A DNA stretch of 64,000 nt from Parcubacteria group bacterium (GCA_041659065.1 JBAZYY010000005.1:974-64973), one strand, 5' to 3'; counted from the stretch's first letter, positions 35,307 through 63,348 are shown. Numbers and translations are program-made. The notes: generated by a model not told the origin, from the sequence alone.

Positions 35307-36089
35307 TTAGCTCTCGCTTTCGTATTGCTTAGCAATCTTCCACAAAGTTTCAAAAAATTGCTTGTAGCTACCAGCAATAACACGGCTTGATATAGTGAAA
35401 TTTGTCACTGGTTCTCCAAAAATGTTGAACCCGATCGCTTCCGGCCAGATGTTGGTGTTAACCATTCCGGTGAATAACCCTGGCAAGACCCGATAATCAA
35501 AAATCTTTCGGCTTCTTTTACTTTTTCCCAGATATTCCTTTTGATCCTCGCTTCCAATGTACCGAGTGGATATTTTTTTAGCGAGGCGCAGTTTTTCATA
35601 CGTTTTAATTTCTTCTCCCATATTTTCGGAAAATTTATCCCCAGCGCCGCCGATAATAAGGAGTTCCGAATTTCCCGGAGCTAAATTCAGCAGGTCAAAT
35701 TCGTGAGTAGTATATGACTCTTTCCCTTGAAATACTTCGAATTCATTCCGAGTTGGAATCAAAATCATTTCATTTAATTTTTCCGCGACTTCTTCCGCCA
35801 TTCTTTTTTGACGGTCGATCATCCCCACTAAGGTTTTTGGATTTTTCGCGCTGAATTTTTTGCGGCCGTGCTTCACTATATGCTGTACCAGTCCTTTTTG
35901 CTCGAGAGTCTCCAAAGAATTATAGATAAATTGGCCATGCAGGCCGGTTTTCTTCACAATTTTTGAACTCCCAACTTCCCCCAGCTCCAAAAGCGCCAGA
36001 TAGACCAAAGCCTCTTTTTCCTTGAGCCCCAGCTCTTTTAGACTGGCCTTAATTCCACTATTATCATTTTTATCAATATTTATTGACAT
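35307..36089 (-). CDS. TrmB-family transcriptional regulator
   Basis: The N-terminal wHTH KEALVYLALLELGEVGSSKIVKKTGLHGQFIYNSLETLEQKGLV is present. The gene is divergent from the carbamoyltransferase operon. Confidence 0.7.
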   Translation of the reverse strand: MSINIDKNDNSGIKASLKELGLKEKEALVYLALLELGEVGSSKIVKKTGLHGQFIYNSLETLEQKGLVQHIVKHGRKKFSAKNPKTLVGMIDRQKRMAEEVAEKLNEMILIPTRNEFEVFQGKESYTTHEFDLLNLAPGNSELLIIGGAGDKFSENMGEEIKTYEKLRLAKKISTRYIGSEDQKEYLGKSKRSRKIFDYRVLPGLFTGMVNTNIWPEAIGFNIFGEPVTNFTISSRVIAGSYKQFFETLWKIAKQYESES

Positions 36090-36150
36090 TATTCACAATA
36101 TTAGCCTTTTTATAGCTCCATTGTATCACATATTTTATCATCAATCAATA

Positions 36151-36179
36151 TTGACATTATCCCATTTTTATTATATACT
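36151..36179 (+). promoter_or_regulatory. Candidate sigma-70 promoter TTGACA-N17-TATACT for the carbamoyltransferase operon
   Basis: The promoter reads ttgaca ttatcccatttttatta tatact. It lies about 155 nt upstream of ATG 36335, so a long 5' leader is implied. Confidence 0.45.
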
Positions 36180-36334
36180 TTAGCGTCACAGTAGAAAACT
36201 CGACTTTGAGAGTGAGAATATTAATAAAGCTTATACTCCACGATAATCTAAAGTAAAATCAGAGAGTTTTTTCGAGATCACCGTAATCACTGAAAATCAC
36301 CTATTCTCGAAAAATTTACAAATAATTAGAGACT

Positions 36335-38749
36335 ATGAAAATTATCGGCTTCAATTTAGCTAGAACTTCCTACGGGCTACCGCTTGATAATGGCGGCGCT
36401 TGTTTGATTGTGGACGGAAAAGTCAAAATGCTAATCAGCGAGGAAAGACTTAATAGAAAACAATATTCTCCTGGGTTTAAAAGAAGCTTCAGCTATATTT
36501 TGGAAAATAATAAACTTTCAATAAATGATATTGATTATTTTGTAGCCAGCTCTTGTTTGGAACCGTTAACCAATCCAAAAATAGTGCAGGTACAATTAAA
36601 GCGCTATGGATTCAACATGCCATTACGTAAAATCAAAGTGAGCGATCATCATTTGTCGCATGCTTTTTCTGCTTATTATCCATCCGGATTTAATGAGGCA
36701 ATTGTTTTGGTGTTGGACGGAGATGGAAATGTGTTGACGGAAAAAATGAAATCTGGAACGGATAACACAAAGAAATATTGGCAAAACAAGATAGAGCATA
36801 ATAGTTATTACGTCGCCAAAGGAAATAAGATAAATTTTCTCGAAAGAGACGAGGTTGAAGCTGGTGAAAATGGTTTTGGCGGGGCATATAGATACTTCAC
36901 TTATTTTTGCGGGTTTCCCGGCTATAAATACGCCGGAAAATTAATGGGTTTATCAGCCTATGGAAGCAAGAGAAATAAGTTCAAAGATATAAAATTATTT
37001 GATTTACTTCCCAACGGCCAAATTAAATGTCTGCTTCCGGATTCCGACAGATTGAATTCCCCAAAAGTTGTTGAAAACTGGCTGAAGAAACAGGGAATCA
37101 AAATTAAAGCTCGAAATCCGCAGGATCCCATTACGGAGGATACTGAAGATATTGCTTTTCTGATGCAAAAGGAATTGGACAGGGCGTTGATTCATAAAGT
37201 CAATTATTTGGTGAAAAAAACGGGAATAACTAATCTTTGCATTGCAGGCGGCGTGGGCTTAAACGCAGTGACTAATAGAGCTATCTTAGATAACACAAAA
37301 ATAAAAAATATCTTCATCCAGCCAGCGGCTGGGGACACTGGACAAGCGCTAGGGAATGCATATTTTGGAGTTTTTAATTTTGATAAAAAAAATATCAAAA
37401 GGAATTTAATTTCTGTGTATCAGGGGAAAGAATATTCGGAAAAAGAAATTAAAAACGCTCTCAATAATGAAAAACTAGTAATTGATTATCAGAAAATGTC
37501 TTTTGATGAGTTATCCAAATTAGCCGCAAAAAAAATAAAGGAAAATTATATCATTGGCTGGTTTCAAGGCCGTTCTGAAATGGGTCCGCGAGCGCTGGGA
37601 AATCGAAGTATTCTCGCAAGTCCGGCCAGCAGCAAGATGAAAGACGCTCTTAATCTCAAAGTCAAACACAGAGAAAACTTTCGGCCGTTTGCCCCAAGTG
37701 TTTTGCGAGAAAAAGTAAGCGAATGGTTTGATATTGATTTCGATGCTCCATATATGATATTCAACGCGCAGGTCAAGCAGCCAAAAATTATTCCGGCCGT
37801 GACCCATAAGGACGGCAGTGCCAGATTGCAAACGGTGAGCAAAAAAGATAACGAGCATTACTATAAGTTAATTAAAGAGTTTGAAAAACTGACAAAAATT
37901 CCGGTTGTCATAAATACATCCTTTAACGATAACGAGTCAATTGTGGAAACGCCGCAGGATGCTTTGAATTGTTTTTTGCGAACCGGCATAGATTATCTTT
38001 TCTTGGGAGACTATTTCGTTTCGAAAAAATCCGGGTTGATAGATCCGGCAAAAAATCTGAAAGAGATTGACAATGCCTGGAGTAAAATTGCCTCGCAAAC
38101 CAGCAAGATCCAAAATGCGAAAAACAAAGTGCTAAATTCGAAGATTTTATCGCTGACGAAAAAATATATTTCAAAAGGAGGGAATATATTCGATTACACC
38201 TGCGAATGGGGGGAGTACGCTAATCTGTTGGCTGAAAATGGATACGAAGTCAACGCCCTGAATGAATCCAACCAGATGATTCTTGGGGCCAGAAAAAAAT
38301 TCACAAAGCCAACATTTTATACCAAAAAAGAATTTCGAAAGAATTTTCCAATCTTGCGGGAAAAGTTTGATCTTGTCATGTCGAATCTCTGGCTGTGCAT
38401 TTTGGAAGAAAAATATCACGGAAAATTCATAGAAAATCTAAAAAAGATGGCGAAAAAAGATGGCTTGATTATGCTAAGTTTCTGCCATCCTGCTTTTGAC
38501 TATATGCGAGACAGTATTGTGACGCGCAGGATAGTCGACTATTCTCAAGCCCGCTACGATAAAAAATTCAAGCACAAAAAAATTGTCCATGAAAATGGTT
38601 TGGCGTTCGACGATTATCACCGCCCTCTGCCCTATTATATTTCGTTATTCAAAAAACATGGATTAAGAATTGTAGATATCGCTGAAAGTAAAACACTGAA
38701 TACGAATTATTATCCCGATTTTATTATTTTTGTACTAAAAGTTAAATGA
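36335..38749 (+). CDS. NodU/CmcH-family carbamoyltransferase fused to a C-terminal class-I SAM-methyltransferase-like domain
   Basis: The N-terminal region has a Kae1/ASKHA-like Carbam_trans_N pattern (KIIGFNLARTSYGLPLDNGGACLIVDGKVKMLISEERLNRKQY). The central region carries the Carbam_trans_C hallmark AVTHKDGSARLQTV. The C-terminal roughly 230 aa are paralogous to the stand-alone methyltransferase at 39429..40151. In the fused copy the SAM motif I is degenerate: DYTCEWG versus DYGCGWG in the stand-alone copy. Confidence 0.8.
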   Translation: MKIIGFNLARTSYGLPLDNGGACLIVDGKVKMLISEERLNRKQYSPGFKRSFSYILENNKLSINDIDYFVASSCLEPLTNPKIVQVQLKRYGFNMPLRKIKVSDHHLSHAFSAYYPSGFNEAIVLVLDGDGNVLTEKMKSGTDNTKKYWQNKIEHNSYYVAKGNKINFLERDEVEAGENGFGGAYRYFTYFCGFPGYKYAGKLMGLSAYGSKRNKFKDIKLFDLLPNGQIKCLLPDSDRLNSPKVVENWLKKQGIKIKARNPQDPITEDTEDIAFLMQKELDRALIHKVNYLVKKTGITNLCIAGGVGLNAVTNRAILDNTKIKNIFIQPAAGDTGQALGNAYFGVFNFDKKNIKRNLISVYQGKEYSEKEIKNALNNEKLVIDYQKMSFDELSKLAAKKIKENYIIGWFQGRSEMGPRALGNRSILASPASSKMKDALNLKVKHRENFRPFAPSVLREKVSEWFDIDFDAPYMIFNAQVKQPKIIPAVTHKDGSARLQTVSKKDNEHYYKLIKEFEKLTKIPVVINTSFNDNESIVETPQDALNCFLRTGIDYLFLGDYFVSKKSGLIDPAKNLKEIDNAWSKIASQTSKIQNAKNKVLNSKILSLTKKYISKGGNIFDYTCEWGEYANLLAENGYEVNALNESNQMILGARKKFTKPTFYTKKEFRKNFPILREKFDLVMSNLWLCILEEKYHGKFIENLKKMAKKDGLIMLSFCHPAFDYMRDSIVTRRIVDYSQARYDKKFKHKKIVHENGLAFDDYHRPLPYYISLFKKHGLRIVDIAESKTLNTNYYPDFIIFVLKVK

Positions 38750-39432
38750 TTACTATGGAAACAAATGAAAAAGTGGAGACAAGCAATCTTCAGAAGGTAT
38801 CGTTCGAACAAATAGAAAAAGCTTTTATGGAATTCAAGGAAAAAGCTAACAATCCATACTATGTGGCTATTTTCGGAAAAACATTTTTGGATGAAACTAC
38901 TGATGAATATAAACTTACCAAAGAAGTCGCGCGAAAAGTGATTGAAAATGATCTGGGAGTTATTCACGGCGCCTATACCGGTGTTATGAAAGCCGCCAGC
39001 CAAGGAGCTGATGCGGCGATTCAAAAATCCAATAAAAGCGAGTATCTAAATATTGGAGTACCGATGAAAACTTTTGACGAAGAATTGCCAAAGGCGTCAA
39101 GGATTAATTTGCCGGCCGCTGAAACAATCGGGGATAGAAAGAAAGCTCTGATTGAGTTTTGCGATGTCTGCGTCGTTATGCCTTCTGGCGGTTTTGGGAC
39201 AATGCTGGAATCATTGGAGATTTTCCATATGAACCAATTAGCTGAAAAGTTTGGAGGAAAAGTACGGCCGCTGATTTTTGTTGGCGAGAGATGGAATATA
39301 ATATTCAAGGCACTATATGATAATTTGGATATGAACAAACAAAAGACTGGAGAAAGTTTTTGTCATTTTATCAAAAATATCGAGCAATTGGAGTTGATAT
39401 TAAACGAAATAGAACTAAAAAAGGAAATATGA
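38746..39432 (+). CDS. LOG-family protein (TIGR00730 Rossmann-fold nucleotide 5'-monophosphate N-glycosidase / 'lysine decarboxylase-like')
   Basis: The GAYTGVMKAASQGA and PSGGFGTMLE (PGGxGTxxE) signatures are present. The start overlaps the upstream stop in an ATGA arrangement. Confidence 0.75.
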   Translation: MITMETNEKVETSNLQKVSFEQIEKAFMEFKEKANNPYYVAIFGKTFLDETTDEYKLTKEVARKVIENDLGVIHGAYTGVMKAASQGADAAIQKSNKSEYLNIGVPMKTFDEELPKASRINLPAAETIGDRKKALIEFCDVCVVMPSGGFGTMLESLEIFHMNQLAEKFGGKVRPLIFVGERWNIIFKALYDNLDMNKQKTGESFCHFIKNIEQLELILNEIELKKEI

Positions 39433-40151
39433 AAAACCAATGGGGGGAAATAGCAAAAAAGGAGAAGGAGATTCAGGATGTTAAAAATAAAATCCTGAAT
39501 GATAAACTTCTCAAGCTGATTTCGAAATATTCTAGGAAAAGAGGAAAAGTTCTTGACTATGGTTGCGGATGGGGTGAGTTTGCGGATATTTTAAGCCAGA
39601 AGGATTTCACGGTATCAGCGTACGATGACGCCGAGGAAATGGTTGCACGTGCGAAAGAAAAATTTGAAAAACCGAAATTTTATACCAAGAAAAAATTTCA
39701 CAAAAATATTCATAGCTTGAAAAGCAAGTTTGATTTAGTTGTTTCCAATCTTGTACTATGTATACTAAAAAAACCGCAACAGGATGTTTTATTGAAAAAT
39801 GTCAAAATGTTATTAAAAAAAGACGGTACAATAATCGTCAGTTTCTGCCATCCATGCTTTGATTATATTACCGAGAGCGTGCTGGCAAGAAGGATTAGAC
39901 CCTATACATACAATCCAAAATACGAAAAAGAATTTAAGTACAGAAAGATAATTCATGAAAACAGAATTCAATTCAACGACTATCATCGCCCACTAGAATA
40001 TTACACATCGTTATTTAATGAGCATAACCTGGAAATAATAGATATTGCCGAGAGTGATGTTATAAAATCCGAATTTTATCCTGATTTTATTATATTTGTA
40101 CTGAAAAATAGAAAAGCCGCAAAATCGACAAAACAAATACTAATATCTTGA
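39429..40151 (+). CDS. Class-I SAM-dependent methyltransferase, paralog of the C-terminal domain of 36335..38749
   Basis: Motif I VLDYGCGWGEF is intact. The start is placed at MKNQWGE, which has an AAGGAA ribosome-binding site and an ATGA overlap with the LOG stop. The ORF track gives an upstream ATG at 39360 inside LOG. Confidence 0.7.
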   Translation: MKNQWGEIAKKEKEIQDVKNKILNDKLLKLISKYSRKRGKVLDYGCGWGEFADILSQKDFTVSAYDDAEEMVARAKEKFEKPKFYTKKKFHKNIHSLKSKFDLVVSNLVLCILKKPQQDVLLKNVKMLLKKDGTIIVSFCHPCFDYITESVLARRIRPYTYNPKYEKEFKYRKIIHENRIQFNDYHRPLEYYTSLFNEHNLEIIDIAESDVIKSEFYPDFIIFVLKNRKAAKSTKQILIS

Positions 40152-40243
40152 TGTATGCAATATTATTGCTGCTCAAAAAAAGATTTATGAAATATTTTTT
40201 TATCTTATTGCCGGCCATCTAGCCTGCTAATGCCGTGAGCAAA

Positions 40244-48126: not shown

Positions 48127-48981
48127 TTATTTGTTATTTTTATTAGACAAAGAGGGAAGTCTTTTGCCTTTTAAAATTTTTGCATTCTTGGCATTTATAA
48201 CGCTTTCGCCTGTTTGTTTTTCTATTTCAAGTCTGGCTTTTTTTGCCGCAAAGCCGCCTCTTCGCGCCACTTTTTTATTTTCTTCCAGTCCTTTAGGTTT
48301 TTGTTTCTTGGATATTTCTGTTGTTGAAACTTCGGCAAGCATATTTAAAACCAATTCGAGATTGGTCATATTGTCTCTCAAATTTTCTTTTTTCAGTCCC
48401 TTGAACTTTTTATAGTCTCTCACGCTTCTGTCCGCCCATGCCCTTGTGATCTCATCCGTCAATATCGCGTATTCCAGTCCTTCTTTCATTTCCCGTTCTT
48501 GCCATTCATCGGTCAATTCTTTTCGCACTTCAATGCTTTTCAAGCGCTGGTTTATCCATTCCTTTGAATAGCCTTTTCGCAAATATGTTTTCATCGCTCT
48601 GTCAAAAGCCAGCTCGGGATCTTCCATTTCTTCTATTCGCTCATATCCAACGCGCGCCAGCCAAAGCTTGATCGGCTCGACTTTCGGGCTGGGGACAGAT
48701 TGGATGAGGCGCAACAATGTTTCAACATCCGCAACATCGGTCATTCTCATTTTTCCATCTGGAGCGACCATTTTCAAACCGTTACATTTTGTAACGGTTT
48801 CATTTGATCCCTCGTCAATCAGGCGTTTTTTGAGTACACGCCAATATACTTGTGGATTTTCGCTATCCGTCAGTACAGCAATAATATCAACGACCGAAAA
48901 ATACCAAAGTTCTTTTTCCTCGTCCCAAAGCCGGCGGATTTCTTTGTTTTCAAAAATGGCAATGCGTTTTTCTTTTTTCAT
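48127..48981 (-). CDS. Bro-N domain protein (DinD / phage antirepressor-like)
   Basis: The N-terminus RIAIFENKEIRRLWDEEKELWYFSVVDIIAVLTDSENPQVYWRVLKKRL is a typical Bro-N/KilA-N-like module. A long helical C-terminal region follows. Confidence 0.6.
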   Translation of the reverse strand: MKKEKRIAIFENKEIRRLWDEEKELWYFSVVDIIAVLTDSENPQVYWRVLKKRLIDEGSNETVTKCNGLKMVAPDGKMRMTDVADVETLLRLIQSVPSPKVEPIKLWLARVGYERIEEMEDPELAFDRAMKTYLRKGYSKEWINQRLKSIEVRKELTDEWQEREMKEGLEYAILTDEITRAWADRSVRDYKKFKGLKKENLRDNMTNLELVLNMLAEVSTTEISKKQKPKGLEENKKVARRGGFAAKKARLEIEKQTGESVINAKNAKILKGKRLPSLSNKNNK

Positions 48982-49003
48982 GCGGATAGTTTTTTATTTT
49001 ACC

Positions 49004-49022
49004 CCCAACATTCAATGTTGGG
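49004..49022. promoter_or_regulatory. Perfect 19-bp palindrome CCCAACATTcAATGTTGGG (candidate operator), 23 bp upstream of the Bro-N gene start
   Basis: The palindrome was read directly from the sequence. It is a near-identical copy of the palindrome at 49151-49171. Confidence 0.5.
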
Positions 49023-49150
49023 TTTGATTAAATGGTATATTATCACTATATCACTATCTTTACCCCTGTCAAGTACTTTGGCGCAAATTCCCCCGCAAAA
49101 AAATCCCGTTCGTTGCAAAACAAAGACGCAGAAGATTTTATTTTCCATTT

Positions 49151-49171
49151 TCCCAATATTCAATATTGGGA
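49151..49171. promoter_or_regulatory. Perfect 21-bp palindrome TCCCAATATTcAATATTGGGA (candidate operator), abutting a TTGCAA-N17-TATACT promoter for the MT/RibA-PRAI operon
   Basis: The palindrome was read directly. The putative promoter is -35 TTGCAA 49181-49186 and -10 TATACT at about 49204-49209, ahead of ATG 49244. Confidence 0.5.
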
Positions 49172-49243
49172 AGTGATAATTTGCAAAAGCAAATATATCC
49201 TATATACTTTAATTACACAAAACATTAAAAAATCGACTACACA

Positions 49244-49927
49244 TTGATGCAATTCAAGCCGAACGATGTCAAAAAATTTAAAGACGTTTGTGATGAAAAC
49301 GATATTATCCCAGTGATTTTAAAGGAAAATCTGGCAAAATATTTTGTTGAACCGATTCTTGACGTCGGCTCCGGGAAAGGAGAAATCATGAGTCAATCTT
49401 TTCCTGAAAAAAGAGTTATACATATTGATATTCAAGATTTCTCCGAATTTAAAATTTCCCAAAATCATACGAGAGAAATAACTGATTTTTTTAGCTACGA
49501 GCCGCAAGAAAAAATTGGCACGGTTTTTTTGTCCCACGCTCTTCAATTCATCGACGATGACATCGTGCTGCTCAACAAAAAATTATCAGAAATATCACCA
49601 GATTATTTGGTTGTTGTCGCAAACACGAATAAGGATTTCATGGGCGATTTGCTGACATGGATTGAAAAGAACTTCAAAAACTCAAATCCCGAGATTGAAT
49701 TGCTAGATTTTCCACGGGGATACGTCCCTGTCGAATCTGCGCCTTTCACGGCAAAAGTTGAATTGCCAGATTACGATCAACTGGCACTGCAAATTGCATA
49801 TTTATTTGATATTCGTTTGAAACAAGCAGAATCAAGTTTATTGGCAAATTATTTGAGTCAAAAGTTAAGCGCTCCGTCTTTTACGATTGATCAGGAGATA
49901 AAAGTTTATAGAAAAATAAATTCATGA
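49244..49927 (+). CDS. SAM-dependent methyltransferase-like protein
   Basis: Motif I ILDVGSGKGE is present. Its stop overlaps the start of the next gene (ATGA at 49924-49927). Confidence 0.6.
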   Translation: MMQFKPNDVKKFKDVCDENDIIPVILKENLAKYFVEPILDVGSGKGEIMSQSFPEKRVIHIDIQDFSEFKISQNHTREITDFFSYEPQEKIGTVFLSHALQFIDDDIVLLNKKLSEISPDYLVVVANTNKDFMGDLLTWIEKNFKNSNPEIELLDFPRGYVPVESAPFTAKVELPDYDQLALQIAYLFDIRLKQAESSLLANYLSQKLSAPSFTIDQEIKVYRKINS

Positions 49928-51222
49928 AAGAAACAGCTTCCGCTAATCTCCCAACAAAATACGGCAACTTTATTATAAAAGCCTGGCCCGAAAAACTCGG
50001 TTTTGAGCCAGTCGCTTTGATGACTCAAAAAATAAATACGAGCAAGCCTGTGCTTGTGAGGGTTCACAGCGAGTGCTTGACCGGCGACACATTCGGGAGT
50101 TACAAATGCGATTGCGGCGTCCAGAAAGAAGAGGCCTTGAAGCTGATTTCAAAATCAAGCACGGGTGGAGTGTTTATTTATTTGAAACAGGAAGGCAGAG
50201 GGATTGGTTTATATGAAAAAATAAAAACATATCATCTTCAAGAACAGGGATATGACACGCACGAAGCAAATATCATGCTCGGCCACAAGCCAGACTTGCG
50301 GGAATATAAATGGGTCAAAAAAATTCTCGACGATTTGGGTATTAAAAAAATCAAATTGATAACCAACAATCCGTCAAAAATCAGCGAGATCTCAAATTTG
50401 GGAGTTGATGTTGCCGAAAGGATTCCTCTTGTGATGAAAAGCAACGAATACAACCGGAAATATTTTGAAAGCAAAAAGGCAAAATTTAAACATTTTTTCG
50501 GAAAAGATATCAGTAATTATTTTTTTGGCATTTCGGGTGTGACGAATTCCACAGAAGTTGAATCTATTGGAGATTTTATGAAAGGCAGAAAGAGGGATCC
50601 CCTTCTGAAAATTTGTTTGGGCATAGCGTTGAATAGAAAATTACTATCAAACGAAAATTTAATAAAAAATATAGAAAAAACGTTCAAAGCCGCGGAATAC
50701 TATGAAGGCTTTGTCCCTATCCTGCACTATTCTTTCCGCTATTCCAAAAATCCCCTCGATGATCTTTTGTTGATCCGAAAATCAATGCCCTTTGTCCAAT
50801 ATATTCAGCTTAATGATCTTTCTTCCAGCTTTTTGAAAGTTTTGAATTATGCAACTAAATATTTCCTTGTTGATTTTCCCCTTTCAAATAATAATTTTAA
50901 CTTGGTCGATAATAGTAAATTTATCGATTTGACAATAAAAAATAAAGTTTTTGTTTTGCTGGATAATAGCGGAGGGAAAGGGAAAAAAGAAAAAGCGGAT
51001 GTTTATCTTTCAAAAATCGGGAAATGTCTTCAAAAAGGAATAAACGATATCGCGCTCGCCGGTGGTTTTGGTCCGGATAACCTTCGCGCCTACCTTGAAG
51101 CAAAAGATTATTTTAAAATAAATTTCTCAATTGATGCCGAAACCGGCCTCAAAACAAACCGGAAACTCGATATGAAGAAAGTAAAGAAATACCTAACAAA
51201 GCTATTAATCAATAAGGGGTGA
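49924..51222 (+). CDS. GTP cyclohydrolase II (RibA) fused to a C-terminal TrpF/PRAI-like (phosphoribosyl-isomerase TIM-barrel) domain
   Basis: Residues 1-200 align throughout with RibA: ANLPTKYGNF, RVHSECLTGD, CDCG, QEGRGIGL, QGYDTHEAN, LITNNPSK and ERIPL. Residues of about 205-432 follow the TrpF pattern: FFGISGVTN (cf. KICGIT), VLLDNSGGKGK (cf. LLD..GGSGK.FDW), LAGGFGPDNL (cf. LSGGLNPENV), and INFSIDAETGLKTNRKLDMKKVKKYL (cf. VDVSSGVE..G.KD..KI..F). Confidence 0.8.
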   Translation: MKETASANLPTKYGNFIIKAWPEKLGFEPVALMTQKINTSKPVLVRVHSECLTGDTFGSYKCDCGVQKEEALKLISKSSTGGVFIYLKQEGRGIGLYEKIKTYHLQEQGYDTHEANIMLGHKPDLREYKWVKKILDDLGIKKIKLITNNPSKISEISNLGVDVAERIPLVMKSNEYNRKYFESKKAKFKHFFGKDISNYFFGISGVTNSTEVESIGDFMKGRKRDPLLKICLGIALNRKLLSNENLIKNIEKTFKAAEYYEGFVPILHYSFRYSKNPLDDLLLIRKSMPFVQYIQLNDLSSSFLKVLNYATKYFLVDFPLSNNNFNLVDNSKFIDLTIKNKVFVLLDNSGGKGKKEKADVYLSKIGKCLQKGINDIALAGGFGPDNLRAYLEAKDYFKINFSIDAETGLKTNRKLDMKKVKKYLTKLLINKG

Positions 51223-51333
51223 ATAACCGCTTAAGACATCTTTGAAGCAAACCCTACAAGGTTTGTTTTTTTATTTTAGATAGAATAAAATAAGATTGCC
51301 TTTCATAAAATATTTCTTCCAATAAAAAACAAA

Positions 51334-54300
51334 ATGGCAAATAAAAACGGGCCGAATCCAGCCCTTCACGGAGCGCACGAAGAAGACGTCCAGAGAGTGC
51401 TGGCAAAAATGAAACACGAATCCGAGGAACAGCAAGCCGCCAATCTGGCCGGTAGTTTAGGTATACCCTATGTCGACCTCAATATTTTTCCGATTGACCC
51501 GGAAACTTTGCGGACAATTCCCAAAGAAAAAGCACTGGAACACCAGATCGTATGCATCCAAAAATTCGGAAAGAATATCAGCGTGGCACTTGCTAATCCG
51601 GCAGATGAACTAGCAGCAAAATATCTTGAGCAACTAGAAAAATCCGAGGGATATAAAATCAAAATCTATGTTTGTTCGAGCACGGGCCTCCAAAAGACAG
51701 TTGAGCGCTACAAACATATAGCTTTGTCGGAAAATCTCGAAGAACTGCGTTTGACCTTGTCCGGATCCGACCTTGAGGAATTTGAAAAAAACCTTAAAGA
51801 TGTCATTGACCTGCAAAAAAGAATCAATGAAATCCCCACCACGGAGGTCATTAATATTGTTATGGCCGGAGCCGTAAAGATGGAAGCGAGCGATATTCAT
51901 TTTGAGCCTCAAGCAGAGGGTATCCGTTTGCGTTTTCGCCTCGATGGCGTACTGCAAAACATATCCATTCTCCCTTCCTCGGTCTATCACTATATCTTAT
52001 CTCGGGTCAAAGTCCTTTCGGGGATGAAAATAAACATCCGTGATATCTCGCAAGACGGGCATTTTTCCATAAATCTAGAAGGAAATGAAATTGATGTTAG
52101 AGTTTCGATCTTGCCGGGAAACTACGGCGAAAATATCGTAATGCGGCTCCTCAACCAGGCGGTGGTGGCACTCAAATTTGACGACTTGGGCCTTAAAGGC
52201 CTGGCTTACGATAAACTGCGAGAGGAAATCAAAAAACCAAACGGCATGGTCCTCAACACAGGCCCGACCGGGTCAGGAAAAACCACCACACTCTACGCCA
52301 TTATCAACCAGCTTAACTCTCCAGAAGTAAAGATAATTACAGTAGAAGATCCGATTGAATATAAGATCAAGGATATTTCCCAAACTCAAGTATCCCGTTC
52401 TCGTGGATACACTTTTGCCAACGCCTTGCGCGCTATTGTGCGTCAGGATCCGGATGTTATTCTTGTTGGAGAAATTAGAGATGATGAAACAGCCAGCATA
52501 GCGCTTCACGCGTCCCTAACCGGGCACCTCGTACTTTCAACCCTACATACCAACAGTGCTATTGAAACAATTCCGCGCCTCATTGATATGGGGGTTAAGC
52601 CTTCGCTCCTGCCAGCCGCGGTCAACGCGTTCATCGCTCAACGACTGGTGCGAAAACTTTGTCCGCATTGCAGAGAAGAATATGCTCCCGCCCGGGAAAC
52701 CGTGGAAAGCGTCAAAAAAATACTAGCTGTTATATCCCCAAAGGCCAAACTTACCATTCCAAAAGAAATTAATAAATTCTACCGTGCCGGGGGCTGTTCC
52801 AAATGTCATGGGCTGGGCTATAAAGGACGCGTCGGTATCTTTGAAATTTTTACTCTAACAGAAGAGATCAGCAAAAGGGTGACTGAAATGGCGCCTGAGG
52901 CGGAAATTTTGTCGTTAGCGCTTGAAGCTGGCATGATTACAATGCTCCAGGATGGAATTCTCAAGGCGCTTGACGGTGTCACTTCGCTTGAAGAAGTGCA
53001 ACGCGTCACGGGGGAAGGTAAATTTTTGGAAGAGCTCTACGAAAAAATCATATCGCAGCTACTGCTGCGTTCGATTGTAATTACCGTAGATGATGGAACT
53101 GAAATCGAAACACTCAAGAGTGACCTACCGAAATTGAGAGAGCTGGTAAAAGCATCCCCCCCGGAAAAATCTCTGCGCCTCATCCTGGCTGGCGGTCTAA
53201 AGCTCGCTGCAGGAGATATTCACATCGAACCGGAGGAGGAATCGGTGAAAATACGCTACCGTATTGACGGAATATTACAGGACGCAGCCGAAATTCCCAT
53301 CACTGAATACCCTCAGCTATTGGGAAACCTCAAAATTCTCAGTGGTTTCAAGGCCAGTGATACCGAGCAAGGAGTAAGAGACAGTCGATTTGGAATAAGC
53401 CTTGAAGAAGGCGCAATGCCTGAAATCAAAGAGAGAGAGATTGATGTCCGTATTTCGATAATCTTAGGCGGTTACGGCGAAACAGTCGTCATGCGGCTCC
53501 TTAACCAGTCAGCGCAAGCTCTCGAGATTGAAAAACTGGGAATCAGGCAGCAGACTCTCGATAAGATACTCAATAAAATTCGAAAGCCTAACGGCATCAT
53601 CCTGAATACCGGCCCGACTGGATCCGGAAAATCGACTACGCTTTATTCCATCTTAAGCATTTTAAACAAACCTGGAGTGAAAATTATAACCGTTGAGGAT
53701 CCGATTGAATACCGCCTCAAAGGGATTTTGCAAACGCAGGTTGACGACAAAAAGGGCTATACTTTCCCAAAAGCCCTCCGCGCGCTTCTTCGCCAAAATC
53801 CAGACATTATGATGATTGGCGAAATTAGAGATGGCGAAACCGCTCAAATTGCCGTCCAGGCGGCTCTCACCGGCCATTTGGTTCTTTCTACGCTGCATAC
53901 TAATAATGCCGCCGGATCTGTGCAGAGGTTGATCAATATGGAAGTCAGCTCTACTGATATTGCATCTTCAGTCAATGCATTCATGGCGCAAAGGTTAGTG
54001 CGACTTCTATGTCCAGACTGCAAGAAACCAGTGCCTCTCGATGAAAAGACAAGGGAACATTTCACAAAGATACTGGAAACGATTTCGGATAAGACGGGGG
54101 TTGAAATCCCCGGCCTGGACAAAATAACAAATATTTACGCAGCGCAAGGTTGCGAGAAGTGCAACAGAATTGGCTATAAAGGCCGAACAACAGTAAGTGA
54201 AATTCTCGAAGTCACCAAAGAAATGGAAGAACTTATCACGCGCGGTCCGACAACATCCGAAGTTGAGGACCTTGCGATCAAACAGGGAATGCTAACCATG

Positions 54301-54375
54301 ACTCAGGACGGAATTCTGAAAGTGCTGGAAGGCATAACCAGCCTCGAAGAAATTGGCCGAGTCACGGAAGAATAA
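51334..54375 (+). CDS. Tandem-duplicated (double) GspE/PilB-type secretion ATPase with N-terminal GspE-N domain
   Basis: There are two complete N1+ATPase units. The first has Walker A LNTGPTGSGKTTT (about 52264), VEDPIE, ILVGEIRD, GHLVLSTLHTN and CPHC...CSKCHGLGYKGR. The second has LNTGPTGSGKSTT (about 53608), VEDPIE, IMMIGEIRD, GHLVLSTLHTNN and CPDC...CEKCNRIGYKGR. Both end ...LEE(V/I)(Q/G)RVT(G)E. Confidence 0.85.
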   Translation: MANKNGPNPALHGAHEEDVQRVLAKMKHESEEQQAANLAGSLGIPYVDLNIFPIDPETLRTIPKEKALEHQIVCIQKFGKNISVALANPADELAAKYLEQLEKSEGYKIKIYVCSSTGLQKTVERYKHIALSENLEELRLTLSGSDLEEFEKNLKDVIDLQKRINEIPTTEVINIVMAGAVKMEASDIHFEPQAEGIRLRFRLDGVLQNISILPSSVYHYILSRVKVLSGMKINIRDISQDGHFSINLEGNEIDVRVSILPGNYGENIVMRLLNQAVVALKFDDLGLKGLAYDKLREEIKKPNGMVLNTGPTGSGKTTTLYAIINQLNSPEVKIITVEDPIEYKIKDISQTQVSRSRGYTFANALRAIVRQDPDVILVGEIRDDETASIALHASLTGHLVLSTLHTNSAIETIPRLIDMGVKPSLLPAAVNAFIAQRLVRKLCPHCREEYAPARETVESVKKILAVISPKAKLTIPKEINKFYRAGGCSKCHGLGYKGRVGIFEIFTLTEEISKRVTEMAPEAEILSLALEAGMITMLQDGILKALDGVTSLEEVQRVTGEGKFLEELYEKIISQLLLRSIVITVDDGTEIETLKSDLPKLRELVKASPPEKSLRLILAGGLKLAAGDIHIEPEEESVKIRYRIDGILQDAAEIPITEYPQLLGNLKILSGFKASDTEQGVRDSRFGISLEEGAMPEIKEREIDVRISIILGGYGETVVMRLLNQSAQALEIEKLGIRQQTLDKILNKIRKPNGIILNTGPTGSGKSTTLYSILSILNKPGVKIITVEDPIEYRLKGILQTQVDDKKGYTFPKALRALLRQNPDIMMIGEIRDGETAQIAVQAALTGHLVLSTLHTNNAAGSVQRLINMEVSSTDIASSVNAFMAQRLVRLLCPDCKKPVPLDEKTREHFTKILETISDKTGVEIPGLDKITNIYAAQGCEKCNRIGYKGRTTVSEILEVTKEMEELITRGPTTSEVEDLAIKQGMLTMTQDGILKVLEGITSLEEIGRVTEE

Positions 54376-54722: not shown

Positions 54723-55730
54723 ATGATCACCTCAACTTCCGAAAAAACCGAAGATACAAAGCTTGATGCCACTCTTCGCCCGCAAAGTTTCCCCGAATAT
54801 GTCGGGCAGCAGCAAATAAAGAAAAACTTGGGAATTTTGATCGAGGCCGCTAAAAAAAGGTCCGAACCGATTGAACACGTTTTGCTTTACGGACCCGCCG
54901 GACTTGGAAAAACAACTCTCGCCCACATTATCGCGAATGAAATGAAGGCAAGTATTCGGGCGACATCCGGACCTGCCATTGAGAAGGTAGGCGATCTTGG
55001 CTCAATTTTGACCAACCTTAGTGACGGAGATATTCTTTTTATTGATGAAATTCACCGCCTGAACAAGCTTATTGAAGAAGTGCTCTACCCCGCTATGGAA
55101 GATTTCAAACTCGACATAATTATCGGCAAAGGCCCATCTGCCAAAACTTTGCAACTTGATCTACCTCGCTTTACTCTCATTGGAGCCACCACCCGCTTAG
55201 GTTCAATTTCTTCTCCTCTCCGCAACCGCTTCGGAGTTATCCATCGCCTTGATTTCTACGGAAACGAGGATATGGAAAAAATAATCCACCGCTCGTCAAA
55301 CATTCTTTCTGTGCCAATTGATAGCGCGGGAGCTAAAATTATCTCCAAATGCAGCCGCAGCACTCCGCGCGTAGGCAACCGCCTCCTGAAACGTGTCCGC
55401 GATTTCACTCAGGTTGAAAACTGTGATCTGATCACCGAAGACCTTTCGAGGCGCGCGCTCAAAATGCTTGAGATTGACGAGCTCGGGCTTGAACCCACGG
55501 ACAGAAGAATCCTCCTTACGATGATTGAAAAATTCGACGGGGGACCAGTAGGAATCCAGACTCTGGCGGCAGCTACTTCCGAAGAAGTTGAGACAATTGA
55601 AGACGTATACGAACCCTATCTTATGCAGTTAGGTTTCCTAGCCAGGACTCCTCGTGGCAGAGTCGTAACCGAGTTAGCTTACAAACATCTCAACTTGCCT
55701 TATAATAAGAATCAGGCAAAGCTAATCTGA
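54723..55730 (+). CDS. ruvB: Holliday junction DNA helicase RuvB
   Basis: The sequence [19 protein letters not shown]...[21 protein letters not shown] matches RuvB. Walker B DEIHRL and the sensor/arginine finger regions are present. Confidence 0.9.
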
Positions 55731-57878: not shown

Positions 57879-60428
57879 ATGCACAACAAAAAATTATCTT
57901 CTCTCGTGGCTATTTTTGCAGCCGCAATCGCCGTTTTTTTCGCTATAAATTCCGCCTGCGCAACAGACAGTGATCTGACCATAACTGAAATAATGTATAA
58001 TCCCGTTGAGAATTCAACCGGCGAAAAAACAGAGTGGCTTGAACTTTATACTAAGGCTGATTTGTATATCGACCCGAAATCAACAAGTTGCACGGTAAAT
58101 TGCCAACTGAAAGATTTTTATGTTTGCACAAAAAAGGGCTGTGCCACCTCATATGTTTCGCCGATATATTTATCCGCTGAAGAAAACAACCTGGATATTA
58201 CGCACGGAGAATTTATTATCTTGGCAAAAGATCCAGAAATATTTCGTAAAACCTATCCGGAGAAAAGCGGCTTACCGATAATCAGGGCGGGATCAAATTT
58301 CAATCTCCTTGAAGATGAAAACGGGTTTATTGCAATCAGTAAGGATAATAAATCATCTTGGATTGAAGAAATTGAATATGGAAAATATAATTTGCAGGCT
58401 TCCGCTGGTCTGTCTATTGAAAAAATGAAATTAGACGACGAAAATGAGGGCAAAAATTGGCAAAAAAGTTGCAATTCCGGCGGATCACCCGGAGAAAAAC
58501 CCAAAGAATGCGAAACTGACCCCGCGCTCCCGATCCCAGTTCCTGAACCGGCAGATCTCGATGATCAAACTGAGGATCCTGCTCTGCCAAGTGCCGAAGA
58601 TTCCGATGACATTCCAGTTGGTTCGCCGGAAATAGTTTATTCGAAAAACCTCAAGCTATCCGAAGTCCTTCCGAATCCTTCGGCTAATGAAGATACTGGT
58701 GAGTTCACGGAAATATATAATTCCGATCCAAAGGAAATTATTGAATTATCCGGATGGAAGCTCGAAGACAAAAGCGGAAATTCCTATCCTCTTCCTGACA
58801 TTCCGCTGAAACCCGGCGAATATCACGCCTTTTACAGAAATAATTCCAAATTTTCACTGAATAACACCGGCAGCGAGGACGTTTTTCTGAAAAATCCGGA
58901 CGGCGAAATTGTCGACCACATCTCCTATTCCGGAACCGCAAAAGAAAATTCCGCATATGCACTCAAAGACGGCGAATTCCAATGGACTTCCACCCCGACT
59001 CCCGGAGCAGAAAATATGGTTGAATCAGATTCAAAAACAAATAGCCCGGTTGAAAATAAAGTCGCGGCAGAAGATGAAGATGAAAAAAATTTCTTGAACA
59101 TTGAGGGAATCCATCTCAGTGAGATCCTCCCCAATCCTAAAAAAGGATCTGATGAATATATTGAAATCGCGAACAGCGGAAAAGAACCGACGAATCTCGC
59201 TGGCTGGCGCGTCAAAGACGCTTCCAAAAGTAAAGGTTATCAATTTAAAGAATCAACCGTTATAAACCCCGGCGATTATCTTGTTATTTATCGCCTCGAT
59301 TCAAAAATAACGCTCAATAATTCGGGTGAGTCGGTATATTTGTACAATCCGAAAGGTGAAATCGTCTCAAGCGTTTCGTTTGATAAATCTTCGAAAAATT
59401 CTTCGTACAACTTCGATGGCGGAGAGTGGAAATGGAGTAAATATCTCACTCCCGGAAAAGAAAACAAATTCGATTCGGAGCCTTCAGTAAAAGTCACCAA
59501 ACCGAAGCATGCTTACAAAGACCTTCCTACCGAGTTTTCTGCCAAAGCTAAAGATAAGGAGACAAAAAAACTAAAATACGCTTGGGATTTCGGCGATGGA
59601 AAGAAAAGCTATCTCAAATCTGCCTCGCACAAATATCTTGATACGGGAAAATACACGGTCACACTTTCAGTCGCAGACGAATCGCAGACCGTCGAAAAAA
59701 GTTTCGTCGTCACTGTGAAAAAATATCCCCGCCCAGACCTTGAAATCGTGAGACTCGTTCCCAACCCCTCAGGTAAAGATGAAGGAGGAGAAATTATCGA
59801 TATAAAGAATAACTCCAGCAAAAAAGTGGATATGAAAAGTTGGAAAATCGCGACGGGCCCGGGCGGAAAAATGTACAACCACCCGATCAGCGGCGAATTG
59901 TCCATCATCCCGGGCGAAACCAAAACTGTCACGCGGGAATTTTCCAAATTCTCCCTCAACAACAAGGCTGGGGAAGTGCAGATAGTGATGCCAGACGGAA
60001 AAATTGTCGATGATGTCGAATACATGAAAGACCCGCCCGACTCGCTTCACGATTCGAAACGGGCGGAAAAAATCGCCGAGGATGAAGCCTACGCGAAAAT
60101 CAACGGGCAGTGGCAATGGCTCACAAATAATGTGATGGAGGCTAGCGAGAATACTGATACAGAAACCGAATTCGTCGACGATCCCACCGGTGAAATCGAA
60201 GCCGCAGCAGAAGAAAATAGTGAAAACAACGATGAAGATGGAGAAGTTTTGGGAGCCGTAAATAAAAACATTCCAATTCTTGCTCCGAAAATGAATAATT
60301 ACACTTCTGAAGACGCTTATATATTTTTGAGCAAGATTGGATTTATTAGACCCAGCAGGGAATTAAATTATTGCCCGTTGAAAAACACAACCGCATCGCT
60401 CGAATATATTCTTATTTCTTCAATCTGA
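57879..60428 (+). CDS. Exported multi-domain surface protein with repeated lamin-tail domains (LTD) and a PKD domain
   Basis: A signal peptide is followed by at least four LTD-like units (LTITEIMYNP..EWLELY, LSEVLPNP..EFTEIYN..LSGWKLED, LSEILPNP..EYIEIAN..LAGWRVKD, IVRLVPNP..IIDIKN..MKSWKI). A PKD motif KYAWDFGDGKK...KYTVTLSV is also present. Confidence 0.7.
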   Translation: MHNKKLSSLVAIFAAAIAVFFAINSACATDSDLTITEIMYNPVENSTGEKTEWLELYTKADLYIDPKSTSCTVNCQLKDFYVCTKKGCATSYVSPIYLSAEENNLDITHGEFIILAKDPEIFRKTYPEKSGLPIIRAGSNFNLLEDENGFIAISKDNKSSWIEEIEYGKYNLQASAGLSIEKMKLDDENEGKNWQKSCNSGGSPGEKPKECETDPALPIPVPEPADLDDQTEDPALPSAEDSDDIPVGSPEIVYSKNLKLSEVLPNPSANEDTGEFTEIYNSDPKEIIELSGWKLEDKSGNSYPLPDIPLKPGEYHAFYRNNSKFSLNNTGSEDVFLKNPDGEIVDHISYSGTAKENSAYALKDGEFQWTSTPTPGAENMVESDSKTNSPVENKVAAEDEDEKNFLNIEGIHLSEILPNPKKGSDEYIEIANSGKEPTNLAGWRVKDASKSKGYQFKESTVINPGDYLVIYRLDSKITLNNSGESVYLYNPKGEIVSSVSFDKSSKNSSYNFDGGEWKWSKYLTPGKENKFDSEPSVKVTKPKHAYKDLPTEFSAKAKDKETKKLKYAWDFGDGKKSYLKSASHKYLDTGKYTVTLSVADESQTVEKSFVVTVKKYPRPDLEIVRLVPNPSGKDEGGEIIDIKNNSSKKVDMKSWKIATGPGGKMYNHPISGELSIIPGETKTVTREFSKFSLNNKAGEVQIVMPDGKIVDDVEYMKDPPDSLHDSKRAEKIAEDEAYAKINGQWQWLTNNVMEASENTDTETEFVDDPTGEIEAAAEENSENNDEDGEVLGAVNKNIPILAPKMNNYTSEDAYIFLSKIGFIRPSRELNYCPLKNTTASLEYILISSI

Positions 60429-60571: not shown

Positions 60572-61096
60572 ATGAAAAACATTATCGTACCAAGTGAATT
60601 AATCGAAAATCGTATCTTCTTGATCCGAGGAAAAAAAGTAATGTTCGACAGGGACTTGGCGAGACTTTACGGTGTCCCCACCAAAGTTCTTAATCAATCC
60701 GTAAGTAGAAATATAGCACGATTTCCCGAAGATTTTATGTTTCAATTATCAAAGCAGGAAACTAATATTTGGAGGTCACAAATTGTGACCTCCAAGAGTG
60801 CTGCCAAGGGATTGCGGAGAAGTCCTTATGTTTTCACCGAGCAGGGCGTAGCGATGCTTTCATCAGTTCTAAAAAGCAAACAGGCGATCCGGGTCAACAT
60901 CCAGATCATGCGGACATTCACAAAAATCCGCGAGATGATTGTGAGCAACAAAACTTTGCGTGAAACAATTGAAGCTATGGAGCGAAAACATGACAGTAAA
61001 TTCAAAGTCATCTTTGATGTAATCAAGCACCTTATTGAAAAAGATAAAATAGACCCAACAAAAATCATCGGCTTTCGGGACAGAAAGAAAAAATAA
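60572..61096 (+). CDS. ORF6N-domain protein (phage/RhuM-associated putative DNA-binding protein)
   Basis: The product has an N-terminal SELIENRIFLIRGKKVMFDRDLARLYGV...NQSVSRNIARFPEDFMFQLSKQE ORF6N-like pattern. A perfect 23-bp palindrome lies inside the gene at 60773-60795. Confidence 0.55.
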   Translation: MKNIIVPSELIENRIFLIRGKKVMFDRDLARLYGVPTKVLNQSVSRNIARFPEDFMFQLSKQETNIWRSQIVTSKSAAKGLRRSPYVFTEQGVAMLSSVLKSKQAIRVNIQIMRTFTKIREMIVSNKTLRETIEAMERKHDSKFKVIFDVIKHLIEKDKIDPTKIIGFRDRKKK

Positions 61097-62583: not shown

Positions 62584-63348
62584 GTGGAACTCAAGCAACA
62601 GCTTCAACAATTAGATCTCACAGGCAAAAAGGCGGATGTGTATCTCGCCTGTCTTGAGCTTGGGTCAGCCACCGTCATTGAAATCGCCAAAAAAGCCGGT
62701 ATCAAACGGACTACGGCCTATGATATTTTGATGGATCTCGCACAACGTGGCTTGGTTTCCGAAACGGTGAAAGGTAAAAAGCGGCTATTTGTCGGTGAAG
62801 ACCCAGAAAAGATCAGGAAAGATCTACAGCGAAAAGAAAATCTCATTTCTGAAATTTTACCCATGCTCAAATCGGTATATAATGTGAGAGGCGTAAAGCC
62901 GAAGATCCGATTCTATGAAGGTATTGAGGGACTCAAGGAAACTTACAACGACACTTTGAAATATTCGGGAGAAATTTTTGCTTTCGCTTCCGAAGATGTG
63001 GTGAAAATATTGGGCAATGAGTGGACGACGGAATACGTGCTGAAAAGAGCGAAGAAAGGGATTCATGCTAAGGCGATCATGCCGGCGAGCGAAATAGTTT
63101 CCGGTTATGCGGAAAAAGATCCAGAACACCTCAGAACTTCAAAATTAATCGATCCAAAAAAATATCCGTTTTCAATGGAAATTAATATTTACGGCCACAG
63201 CAAAGTTTCCTTGATGTCTTCCAAAGAACAGTTGGGACTTGTCATTGAAAGCACGGAGATATATAATACGATGAAGCTAATTTTTGAATTACTCTGGGAT
63301 AACTTACCAGAAGTTAAAGTCACGAAACATGTGACCCAAAACATATAA
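62584..63348 (+). CDS. TrmB-family transcriptional regulator (GTG start)
   Basis: The wHTH is KKADVYLACLELGSATVIEIAKKAGIKRTTAYDILMDLAQRGLV. The C-terminal domain matches the other paralogs. The start codon is GTG at 62584. Confidence 0.7.
   Translation: MELKQQLQQLDLTGKKADVYLACLELGSATVIEIAKKAGIKRTTAYDILMDLAQRGLVSETVKGKKRLFVGEDPEKIRKDLQRKENLISEILPMLKSVYNVRGVKPKIRFYEGIEGLKETYNDTLKYSGEIFAFASEDVVKILGNEWTTEYVLKRAKKGIHAKAIMPASEIVSGYAEKDPEHLRTSKLIDPKKYPFSMEINIYGHSKVSLMSSKEQLGLVIESTEIYNTMKLIFELLWDNLPEVKVTKHVTQNI

Follow-up and report, generated by a model that had tools for sequence, protein, structure and literature searches.

Introduction

In the PilB/GspE clade of the PilT-like (secretion) ATPases, each chain carries one motor, made of an N2D and a C-terminal domain (CTD), and six identical chains make up a ring. 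The closest described members are PilB, with structures from Geobacter metallireducens (5TSG/5TSH), Geobacter sulfurreducens (5ZFR), and Myxococcus xanthus (3JC8), and GspE/EpsE, with structures from Vibrio cholerae (1P9R/4KSR) and Vibrio vulnificus (4PHT). The PilB ring consists of six "packing units" and has C2 symmetry; sites that lie across the ring from each other fire at the same time, which rotates PilC by 60 degrees (PMC5424180). Here we describe a protein of the same clade in which two motors lie in tandem on one chain. It is encoded by a single gene of a 64,000-nucleotide stretch of DNA from a Parcubacteria group bacterium (GCA_041659065.1, JBAZYY010000005.1:974-64973), termed the window, and is 1013 amino acids long.

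The GspF/PilC proteins, like TadB/TadC, are a membrane platform family and not ATPases. GspF/PilC is itself an internal tandem duplication. In the PulE6:PulF3 model, a GspF trimer presents six alternating Cyto1/Cyto2 domains, each of which binds one N2D in a 6:3 stoichiometry, and TadB/TadC has been proposed to be a trimer of heterodimers (PMC10790770). If this stoichiometry holds, the 3 x 2 design of the platform would have its counterpart on the motor side in a tandem ATPase. Internal duplication has likewise lengthened one PilB-family ATPase, PilF of Thermus thermophilus (5OIU, 6F8L), whose solved chain has 913 residues and whose core superposes on the present protein with a template-modelling (TM) score of 0.91. 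PilF repeats its N-terminal GSPII domains and has a single motor, whereas the tandem protein repeats its motor and has a single N-terminal domain.

Domain Architecture

The open reading frame (ORF) listing of the window gives the gene exactly the coordinates and the length that a first-pass annotation, made from the sequence alone, had assigned to it, and the frame holds no internal stop codon. In Pfam, T2SSE (PF00437) is matched twice (E value 1.6e-232, best stretch residues 168-557) and MshEN/GSPII (PF05157) once, at residues 42-130 (E value 5.3e-11). The architecture is N1D-[N2D-CTD]-48-residue linker-[N2D-CTD]. The first-pass annotation had spoken of two complete "N1+ATPase" modules; both modules are indeed complete, while the name does not stand, the field's term for such a module being N2D+CTD and N1D being the single N-terminal domain. 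A motif scan finds every motif that it had listed, from Walker A to the cysteine pairs, in both halves at equivalent positions 450 residues apart (Table 1).

The two halves align with each other over residues 140-561 and 581-1013, with 48% identity and an E value of 3e-142 (BLASTP). Because this self-alignment opens at residue 140 against residue 581, the duplicated unit starts in the helices that join N1D to N2D. The linker between the modules carries a conserved motif of its own, read from an alignment of 13 diverse family members, and N2D-2 carries an insertion of 8-9 residues that is specific to the Moranbacteria group. An AlphaFold2 (AF2) monomer model of the full chain, built on a 60-sequence alignment, folds the domains well, with a mean predicted local distance difference test (pLDDT) score of 78.9 that falls below 50 in linker residues 562-578. 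Foldseek superposes a module of this model on PilB core chains of the PDB with TM scores up to 0.94 and a root-mean-square deviation of 2.3 Å.

The single N1D is of the GSPII/MshEN type. Control by c-di-GMP through this domain was considered and not adopted: the Pfam match covers the GSPII-like part only, and the RLGxxLLxxG-type motif of relatives such as P0141 and P0176 was not seen by eye in the N-terminus of the window's protein. Elsewhere in the window, a gene at 5350-6195 on the minus strand encodes a GGDEF diguanylate cyclase domain protein, within what is a reduced genome of the candidate phyla radiation (CPR). No link between this protein and the tandem ATPase is established, and the ATPase N-terminus is apparently without the c-di-GMP-binding MshEN motif.

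Conservation of the Fused Form

The fused form is found far beyond this one assembly and is conserved throughout a lineage of ultra-small bacteria. The identical protein (P0001) is public as "GspE/PulE family protein [Parcubacteria group bacterium]" in a collection that spans NCBI, JGI, ENA, and Logan data. When 5.8 billion proteins were searched, the best 120 matches, which are clusters at 90% identity, were 1005-1031 amino acids long and 59-79% identical to the query, save for three partial sequences and a three-module protein (P0056). All derive from metagenome-assembled genomes (MAGs) of Moranbacteria, Parcubacteria, or Patescibacteria. When 1.84 billion representatives, clustered at 50% identity, were searched without filters, about 14 further tandem clusters came to light, down to 39% identity.

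The junction between the modules was examined separately, with a probe built across it from five sequences and run against one genome per species. It found 566 related stretches, and in each of the best 80 loci the match, at 43-73% identity, runs through the junction (residues 1-204 or 1-19x). The junction is thus continuous in at least 80 species-level genomes, mostly of Ca. Moraniibacteriota/Parcubacteria, and 70 intact genes of 990-1040 amino acids were recovered from these loci. In many MAGs among loci L003-L082, the gene and its synteny are clearly of the Patescibacteria type, yet the records bear titles such as "uncultured Bdellovibrionales", "Gammaproteobacteria", or "Bathyarchaeia archaeon" and are probably mislabelled.

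A fused gene of this kind could in principle be an artefact, in which two neighbouring PilB genes were merged by mis-assembly or a stop codon between them was removed by sequencing error. Broken frames, the only observation that might be turned in its favour, are few, and the copies concerned are ended by contig edges or frameshifted within a module; one lies in a long-contig complete genome (CP064994.1). The breaks of L069 and L028 lie inside modules and off the junction. Only in L010, a contig of 1.4x coverage, does the break fall within the stretch matched as junction. No direct DNA repeat of at least 20 nucleotides was found within the gene, the linker itself is conserved, and the same fused frame recurs in more than 120 clusters and at least 80 species genomes. 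The first-pass annotation had stated that its claim of one real polypeptide would fall if independent assemblies showed the halves to be separated by a frameshift or stop, and had suggested a search for the same architecture in other genomes; the architecture was found, and the halves are continuous. Independent assemblies rule the artefact out, and the probability left to it is negligible.

Family Assignment

By domain content and motifs, the protein belongs to the PilB/GspE clade of PilT-like (secretion) ATPases, from whose plan of one N2D-CTD motor per chain it departs in having two. The first half alone matches the solved PilB/GspE chains over the full N2D+CTD (E value 1e-113), and module 1 together with N1D aligns with PilB from end to end at about the same value. 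The best PDB matches of the second half (module 2 and linker) are GspE 4pht (7e-92) and PilB 3jc8 (4e-90). With PilB the protein shares N1D, N2D, CTD, all motifs, the arginine fingers, the zinc motif, and the inter-chain arginine, in a fold that superposes with TM scores of at least 0.9. It differs from PilB in having two motors with one N1D and a histidine in module 1 at the position of R257. It shares clade and motifs with GspE/EpsE as well, and differs from these in its tandem form.

Profile scores assign neither module alone to a named family. Against the PilB equivalog TIGR02538 (cut-off 675.65 bits), residues 1-561 score 505.0 and residues 562-1013 score 426.7; the whole protein exceeds the cut-off, at 919.6, because its two modules add up. 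Likewise, the modules score 239.5 and 228.6 against ComGA NF041000, below its 300 bits, and the 463 of the whole protein is the sum of the two. The GspE equivalog TIGR02533 gives 496.8 and 429.9, below its cut-off of 630.25 bits. PilT TIGR01420 gives 196.3 and 167.8, below 319.1 bits, and the protein, unlike the PilT/PilU ATPases of about 350 amino acids, has the N1D and the cysteine motif. GspE systems have a secretin and outer-membrane parts, which CPR bacteria are without; the PilQ secretin is not found in CPR (PMC6744442). No type II secretion genes lie near the ATPase gene.

Catalytic and Ring-Contact Residues

Residues were mapped to G. metallireducens PilB numbering through an alignment with 5ZFR (5ZFR index minus 14), with roles taken from PMC5424180, and were counted in 133 tandem proteins and 127 single-module relatives. 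The Walker A lysine, the Mg-binding glutamate of the Asp box (E357), the catalytic glutamate (E395), T411, the His box (H413 and H420), the pore-loop residues D398/E400, the inter-chain R455, and the four cysteines are invariant or nearly so in both modules (129-133 of 133). The four catalytic motifs (Walker A, the Asp box, an atypical Walker B with the catalytic glutamate, and the His box) are invariant in 132-133 of the tandem proteins in either module. The N2D arginine fingers (R271 and R286) correspond to R256 and R271 in module 1 and to R706 and R721 in module 2, and are present in both modules of all 133. The clade-specific inter-chain arginine is R440 in module 1 (133/133) and R890 in module 2 (132/133). 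The cysteines of the zinc-binding motif are kept in 132-133 proteins, with CxC replacing the first CxxC in some relatives. The second half had been described at the outset as retaining its ATPase residues, and all catalytic and ring-contact residues checked are kept in both modules. By these residues, both modules would bind and hydrolyse ATP.

Both modules are under equally strong purifying selection. The median ratio of nonsynonymous to synonymous substitutions (dN/dS; Nei-Gojobori, 25 gene pairs) is 0.036 for module 1 and 0.045 for module 2, while N1D has 0.09 and the linker about 0.10. In the least saturated gene pair, the values of the two modules are 0.042 and 0.034. Column entropy is 0.70 in module 1 and 0.82 in module 2.

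Among the residues checked, the only systematic asymmetry between the modules is at the position equivalent to R257, the arginine of the QDGR motif, which in G. metallireducens PilB bridges to the Mg-binding glutamate at the ATP-bound open interface (PMC5424180). In module 1 this position is histidine in 98 proteins, arginine in 28, glutamine in 5, and serine in 2; the window's protein has His243. In module 2 it is arginine in 132 of 133, and in the single-module relatives in 111 of 127. Non-equivalence of the two sites is therefore plausible, with the limited support of one replaced arginine.

The same replacement could mean more, namely that module 1 is mainly regulatory or structural and binds nucleotide with little hydrolysis, so that three working and three modulatory sites would alternate like the alpha and beta subunits of F1/V1-ATPase. 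The loss of a bridging arginine from 105 of 133 module-1 sequences fits this idea, as do two further losses in the module-1 set, one of the Walker A lysine (in P0137) and one of the Mg-binding glutamate. The window's own family, however, keeps the Walker A lysine, catalytic glutamate, arginine fingers, and His box in module 1 without exception. Module 1 is, if anything, the more constrained of the two by both dN/dS and entropy, and 28 of its sequences still have the arginine. A regulatory module 1 is thus unlikely.

Duplication History

The history of the modules was examined in a neighbour-joining tree of 180 modules and in bootstraps. In the tree, the module-1 and module-2 sequences of the main family fall in separate clades. 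Of the bootstrap replicates, 87% recover the module-2 sequences of the Moranbacteria-type group as a monophyletic set, 62% place all module-2 sequences together without any module 1, and none of 200 unites module 1 and module 2 from the same lineage. A single old duplication is therefore likely for the main family, and the single-module relative P0138, found in the same DHH/RuvB context, speaks for a duplication in place. This agrees with the old duplication and diverged halves of the first-pass annotation. Within a protein, the modules are 36-52% identical.

Other duplications appear to have occurred beside this one. In three other proteins, P0129, P0132 (74% identity between modules), and P0137, the two modules are sisters with 98-100% support, which indicates independent duplications or gene conversion. 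P0056 (1460 amino acids, L083:10001-14383), seen on just one contig of 77 kb, carries three modules, all complete. The middle one is chimeric, with an N2D like that of module 3 (module-2-type) and a C-terminal part like that of module 1, as unequal crossing-over would produce. P0137 (1047 amino acids) comes from a GC-rich, apparently non-CPR organism and has two T2SSF domains (PilC/GspF-type, cytoplasmic) followed by two T2SSE modules, the first with a Walker A that is without its lysine (GPTGSGTTT).

Assembly and Mechanism

The most likely assembly, judged from the conserved residues and the variant architectures, is a trimer that forms one pseudo-hexameric ring. Three chains would make up one PilB-like ring with their modules alternating m1-m2-m1-m2-m1-m2, and this six-module ring would dock on a trimeric PilC/GspF-type platform with its alternating Cyto1/Cyto2 domains. 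Such a trimer would match PilC chain for chain (3:3), and the fusion would hold the motor in a fixed register with the platform and so allow each N2D to specialise. The ring would then drive the assembly of a type IV filament, either a pilus or a competence-type filament.

Several observations favour a single ring. The N2Ds are more diverged between the modules (41% identity) than the CTD cores (59%), and both modules retain the PilC-facing residues of the pore loop. Each chain has only one N1D. The module counts of two and, in P0056, three both divide six, and the P0137 fusion pairs two T2SSF with two T2SSE domains.

KaiC and the type II AAA+ proteins (ClpB, p97/VCP, and NSF) also have two homologous P-loop ATPase domains per chain, and form six-fold rings stacked as two rings of six chains. 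The main rival for the assembly follows this plan: six chains, with a ring of first modules above a ring of second modules. Natural tandem P-loop ATPases usually stack in this way, and the inter-chain arginine and packing residues kept in both modules, as well as the 48-residue linker, are compatible with either arrangement. In a stacked assembly, however, the platform meets only the N2D face of one ring, yet pore loops and N2D are strongly constrained in both modules. The three-module variant would require three stacked rings, and a single P0137 chain unites a pair of platform domains with a pair of motor modules. KaiC and the type II AAA+ proteins are of a different ATPase branch from the tandem protein, which is PilT/VirB11-like. 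No stacked tandem occurs among the PilT-like ATPases in the PDB matches, where Foldseek recovered single PilB, GspE, and PilT chains only. The stacked double ring is accordingly improbable, and a single ring of three chains, although unproven, is the more likely form.

Within a single ring of three chains, the histidine of module 1 at the R257-equivalent may make the two classes of site kinetically different. That a trimer with two non-equivalent sites enforces an asymmetric cycle, as was first suggested from the sequence, is plausible. In a C2 cycle, each firing pair would consist of one m1 and one m2 site. The natural C3 symmetry of the tandem ring recalls the C3 "ocococ" state of PilT4, as named in PDB titles.

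Genomic Neighbourhood and Cellular Role

PilB is encoded with pilC/pilM/pilN, and the window's gene is not; no other type IV pilus gene was found within the 64-kb window. The most conserved neighbour of the ATPase family in CPR genomes is a gene for a DHH-like protein. In 62 of 82 related loci, it directly precedes the ATPase gene on the same strand, at a distance of about 144 bp. Downstream, ruvB follows in 62 of the 82, and bPH and lamin-tail domain (LTD)/PKD genes come after it. In the window, the DHH-like gene is separated from the ATPase by a stretch of about 3.2 kb with lower GC (48127-51222, GC 0.38) that holds a Bro-N domain gene (minus strand), an unannotated ORF of 227 amino acids, and a GTP cyclohydrolase II fusion of 432 amino acids. 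Most related loci do not have this stretch, which resembles a local insertion.

The relation to the pilus operon is seen on a contig of 921,850 bp, which carries both a tandem gene (P0100, locus L086, in the DHH/ruvB context) and, about 100 kb away, a canonical operon (L085:8242-17407). The operon encodes a histidine kinase, a response regulator, a single-module PilB of 584 amino acids, PilC (P0347), a PilX_N-like protein, PilM, and PilN. Its PilB falls in the classical PilB branch and is 48% and 46% identical to the two module cores of the window's protein. Moranbacteria therefore carry two PilB-family motors, and the tandem ATPase is not the extension motor of the operon; its identification as "the" pilus PilB was rejected.

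Single-module relatives in other CPR genomes (P0138, P0146, and P0156) keep the DHH and/or ruvB(-yebC-ruvC) context. P0138 and P0156 are followed by ruvB, and the P0138 locus reads DHH-PilB-RuvB. Because these relatives share the DHH/ruvB context and the operon has its own PilB, the tandem ATPase is a PilB-like orphan paralogue, specific to CPR, in duplicated form. Few observations point to a link with pili. In L003, the gene directly after the ATPase gene encodes a pilin, PilC lies 7 kb away in L042, and a cognate PilC is present in the same genome where P0347 and P0100 share a contig. Another single-module relative, P0160 (L089:1250-6918), stands directly after PrgI, TraC-like, and VirB4/TraG-like genes. 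Its neighbourhood is a type IV secretion/conjugation-like cluster on a CPR-like contig.

Such an orphan might not extend pili at all, and may instead serve a competence or DNA-uptake filament or a recombination-linked function in CPR cells. The operon's own PilB leaves room for this role, as does the failure of either module alone to reach the NCBIfam cut-offs for PilB, GspE, ComGA, and PilT, and one relative adjoins genes of the type IV secretion kind. The order DHH-ATPase-RuvB(-YebC-RuvC), which recurs in 62 of 82 loci as well as near single-module relatives from other CPR lineages, also points this way. Conserved order in streamlined CPR genomes, however, need not imply shared function, and the protein bears the full PilB/GspE signature, including N1D and the zinc motif. 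The adjacent pilin gene and the nearby PilC of two relatives weigh in the same direction. A role apart from pilus extension is possible though doubtful; it concerns cellular function and is compatible with the proposed ring mechanism.

Table 1. Coordinates of the tandem ATPase gene, its domains and motifs, and the neighbouring features of the window.
Feature	Position	Strand	Details
DHH-like protein, 383 aa	46975..48126	+	Degenerate DHH motif; weak Pfam DHH match, E 1.7e-4
Terminator-like hairpin	51244..51269	+	Between upstream gene and ATPase gene; consensus scan, pattern match only
Tandem PilB/GspE-family ATPase, whole gene, 1013 aa	51334..54375	+	ATG start; stop codon 54373-54375; ORF listing
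N1D, GSPII/MshEN-type	51457..51723	+	Residues 42-130; one per chain; PF05157; AF2 pLDDT 74-86
N1D-N2D linker helices	51724..51837	+	Residues 131-168; homologous to second half of inter-module linker; same helix/strand pattern in AF2 model
Motor module 1	51838..53016	+	Residues 169-561; N2D-1 169-285, CTD-1 286-561
His243 codon CAT	52060..52062	+	N2D-1; at conserved Arg of QDGR motif (R257 of G. metallireducens PilB)
Module 1 Walker A	52261-52284	+	GPTGSGKT, residue 310
Module 1 Asp box	52342-52359	+	VEDPIE, residue 337
Module 1 Walker B	52468-52482	+	GEIRD, residue 379
Module 1 His box	52522-52548	+	GHLVLSTLH, residue 397
Module 1 Cys pairs	52660-52671 and 52795-52806	+	CPHC, residue 443; CSKC, residue 488
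Inter-module linker	53017..53160	+	Residues 562-609; conserved motif G-x-x-[FY]-[LIV]-E-x-[LIM]-Y...Q-x-L-x-R
Motor module 2	53161..54372	+	Residues 610-1013; N2D-2 610-735, CTD-2 736-1013
Module 2 Walker A	53611-53634	+	GPTGSGKS, residue 760
Module 2 Asp box	53692-53709	+	VEDPIE, residue 787
Module 2 Walker B	53818-53832	+	GEIRD, residue 829
Module 2 His box	53872-53898	+	GHLVLSTLH, residue 847
Module 2 Cys pairs	54010-54021 and 54151-54162	+	CPDC, residue 893; CEKC, residue 940
ruvB	54723..55730	+	Conserved downstream neighbour; Pfam RuvB_N/RuvB_C
Large surface-type protein	57879-60428	+	One PKD and three lamin-tail domains; position after the ATPase-ruvB block conserved in related genomes
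ORF6N (phage antirepressor-like) gene	60572-61096	+	After lamin-tail/PKD gene

Strength of the Proposed Model

Taken as a whole, it is on balance probable that the protein is an old, in-place-duplicated orphan motor of CPR bacteria, which as a single ring of three chains on a PilC/GspF platform would drive a type IV filament. A number of observations weigh against this model. The deep nodes of the module tree have only moderate support, and the AF2 monomer, with a predicted TM score (pTM) of 0.47, did not resolve the relative placement of the modules. Histidine and arginine toggle at the R257-equivalent within the closest clade, where 28 of 133 module-1 sequences keep the arginine, so the replacement may be nearly neutral. 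The N2D types of P0056 run a-b-b and would not alternate with Cyto1/Cyto2, which argues against strict specialisation of N2D for Cyto domain. Finally, pilC, pilM, or pilins are not adjacent in the window nor in most of the 82 related loci, and the same genome has a canonical operon PilB.

A bolder form of the model goes further. N2D-1 and N2D-2 would each be paired to one type of Cyto domain, the two kinetic classes of site would work in an alpha3-beta3-like manner, and the ring would power another type IV filament system, peculiar to CPR; evolution would have arrived at the design repeatedly, through no fewer than four independent tandem duplications and the T2SSF x2-T2SSE x2 fusion. A role of this filament in DNA uptake is considered possible because the DHH-ATPase-RuvB(-RuvC) neighbourhood is conserved. 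In all its parts together, this form is rather unlikely.

Other Features of the Window

Two further features of the window lie apart from the ATPase locus. The region 36001-40200 has the lowest GC (0.36) with reversed GC and AT skew, and encodes a methyltransferase, a carbamoyltransferase-methyltransferase fusion (804 amino acids), and a SLOG/lysine-decarboxylase-like protein. Either acquisition as an island or a strand switch may account for it. The 64 kb also hold genes for three TrmB-family transcriptional regulators that are paralogues of one another, at 18437-19189 (minus strand), 35307-36089 (minus strand), and 62584-63348 (plus strand).

Significance

A full-text literature search found no description of tandem or fused PilB, GspE, or PilT ATPases. 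A survey of CPR protein families has PilB and PilT only as one family (PMC6744442), and in a 2026 survey of archaea, ATPase fusions were not seen in archaeal systems. Tandem sequences are already public with generic annotation only, and no published description of the architecture itself was found.

How the PilB, GspE, and PilT hexamers turn ATP hydrolysis into filament assembly is debated with respect to C2, C3, and C6 cycles, the number of sites that must fire, and a dimeric or trimeric platform. The models of the ring are constrained by a covalent motor dimer that is natural and strongly conserved, since the ring can have at most C3 symmetry in sequence. A C2 cycle would pair m1 with m2 on opposite sides, and the motor could match PilC at three chains to three.

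Single-chain ClpX hexamers, described by Martin, Baker and Sauer in 2005, reportedly allow site-specific inactivation and tests of coordination through covalently linked neighbouring subunits. That linkage is a laboratory construct, whereas the linkage of the tandem ATPase is natural and maintained by evolution. Each class of site can be mutated separately in this natural construct, for which ClpX needed engineering. For Moranbacteria and other Parcubacteria, a second PilB-like motor outside the pilus operon bears on how episymbiotic, DNA-scavenging cells use type IV filaments.

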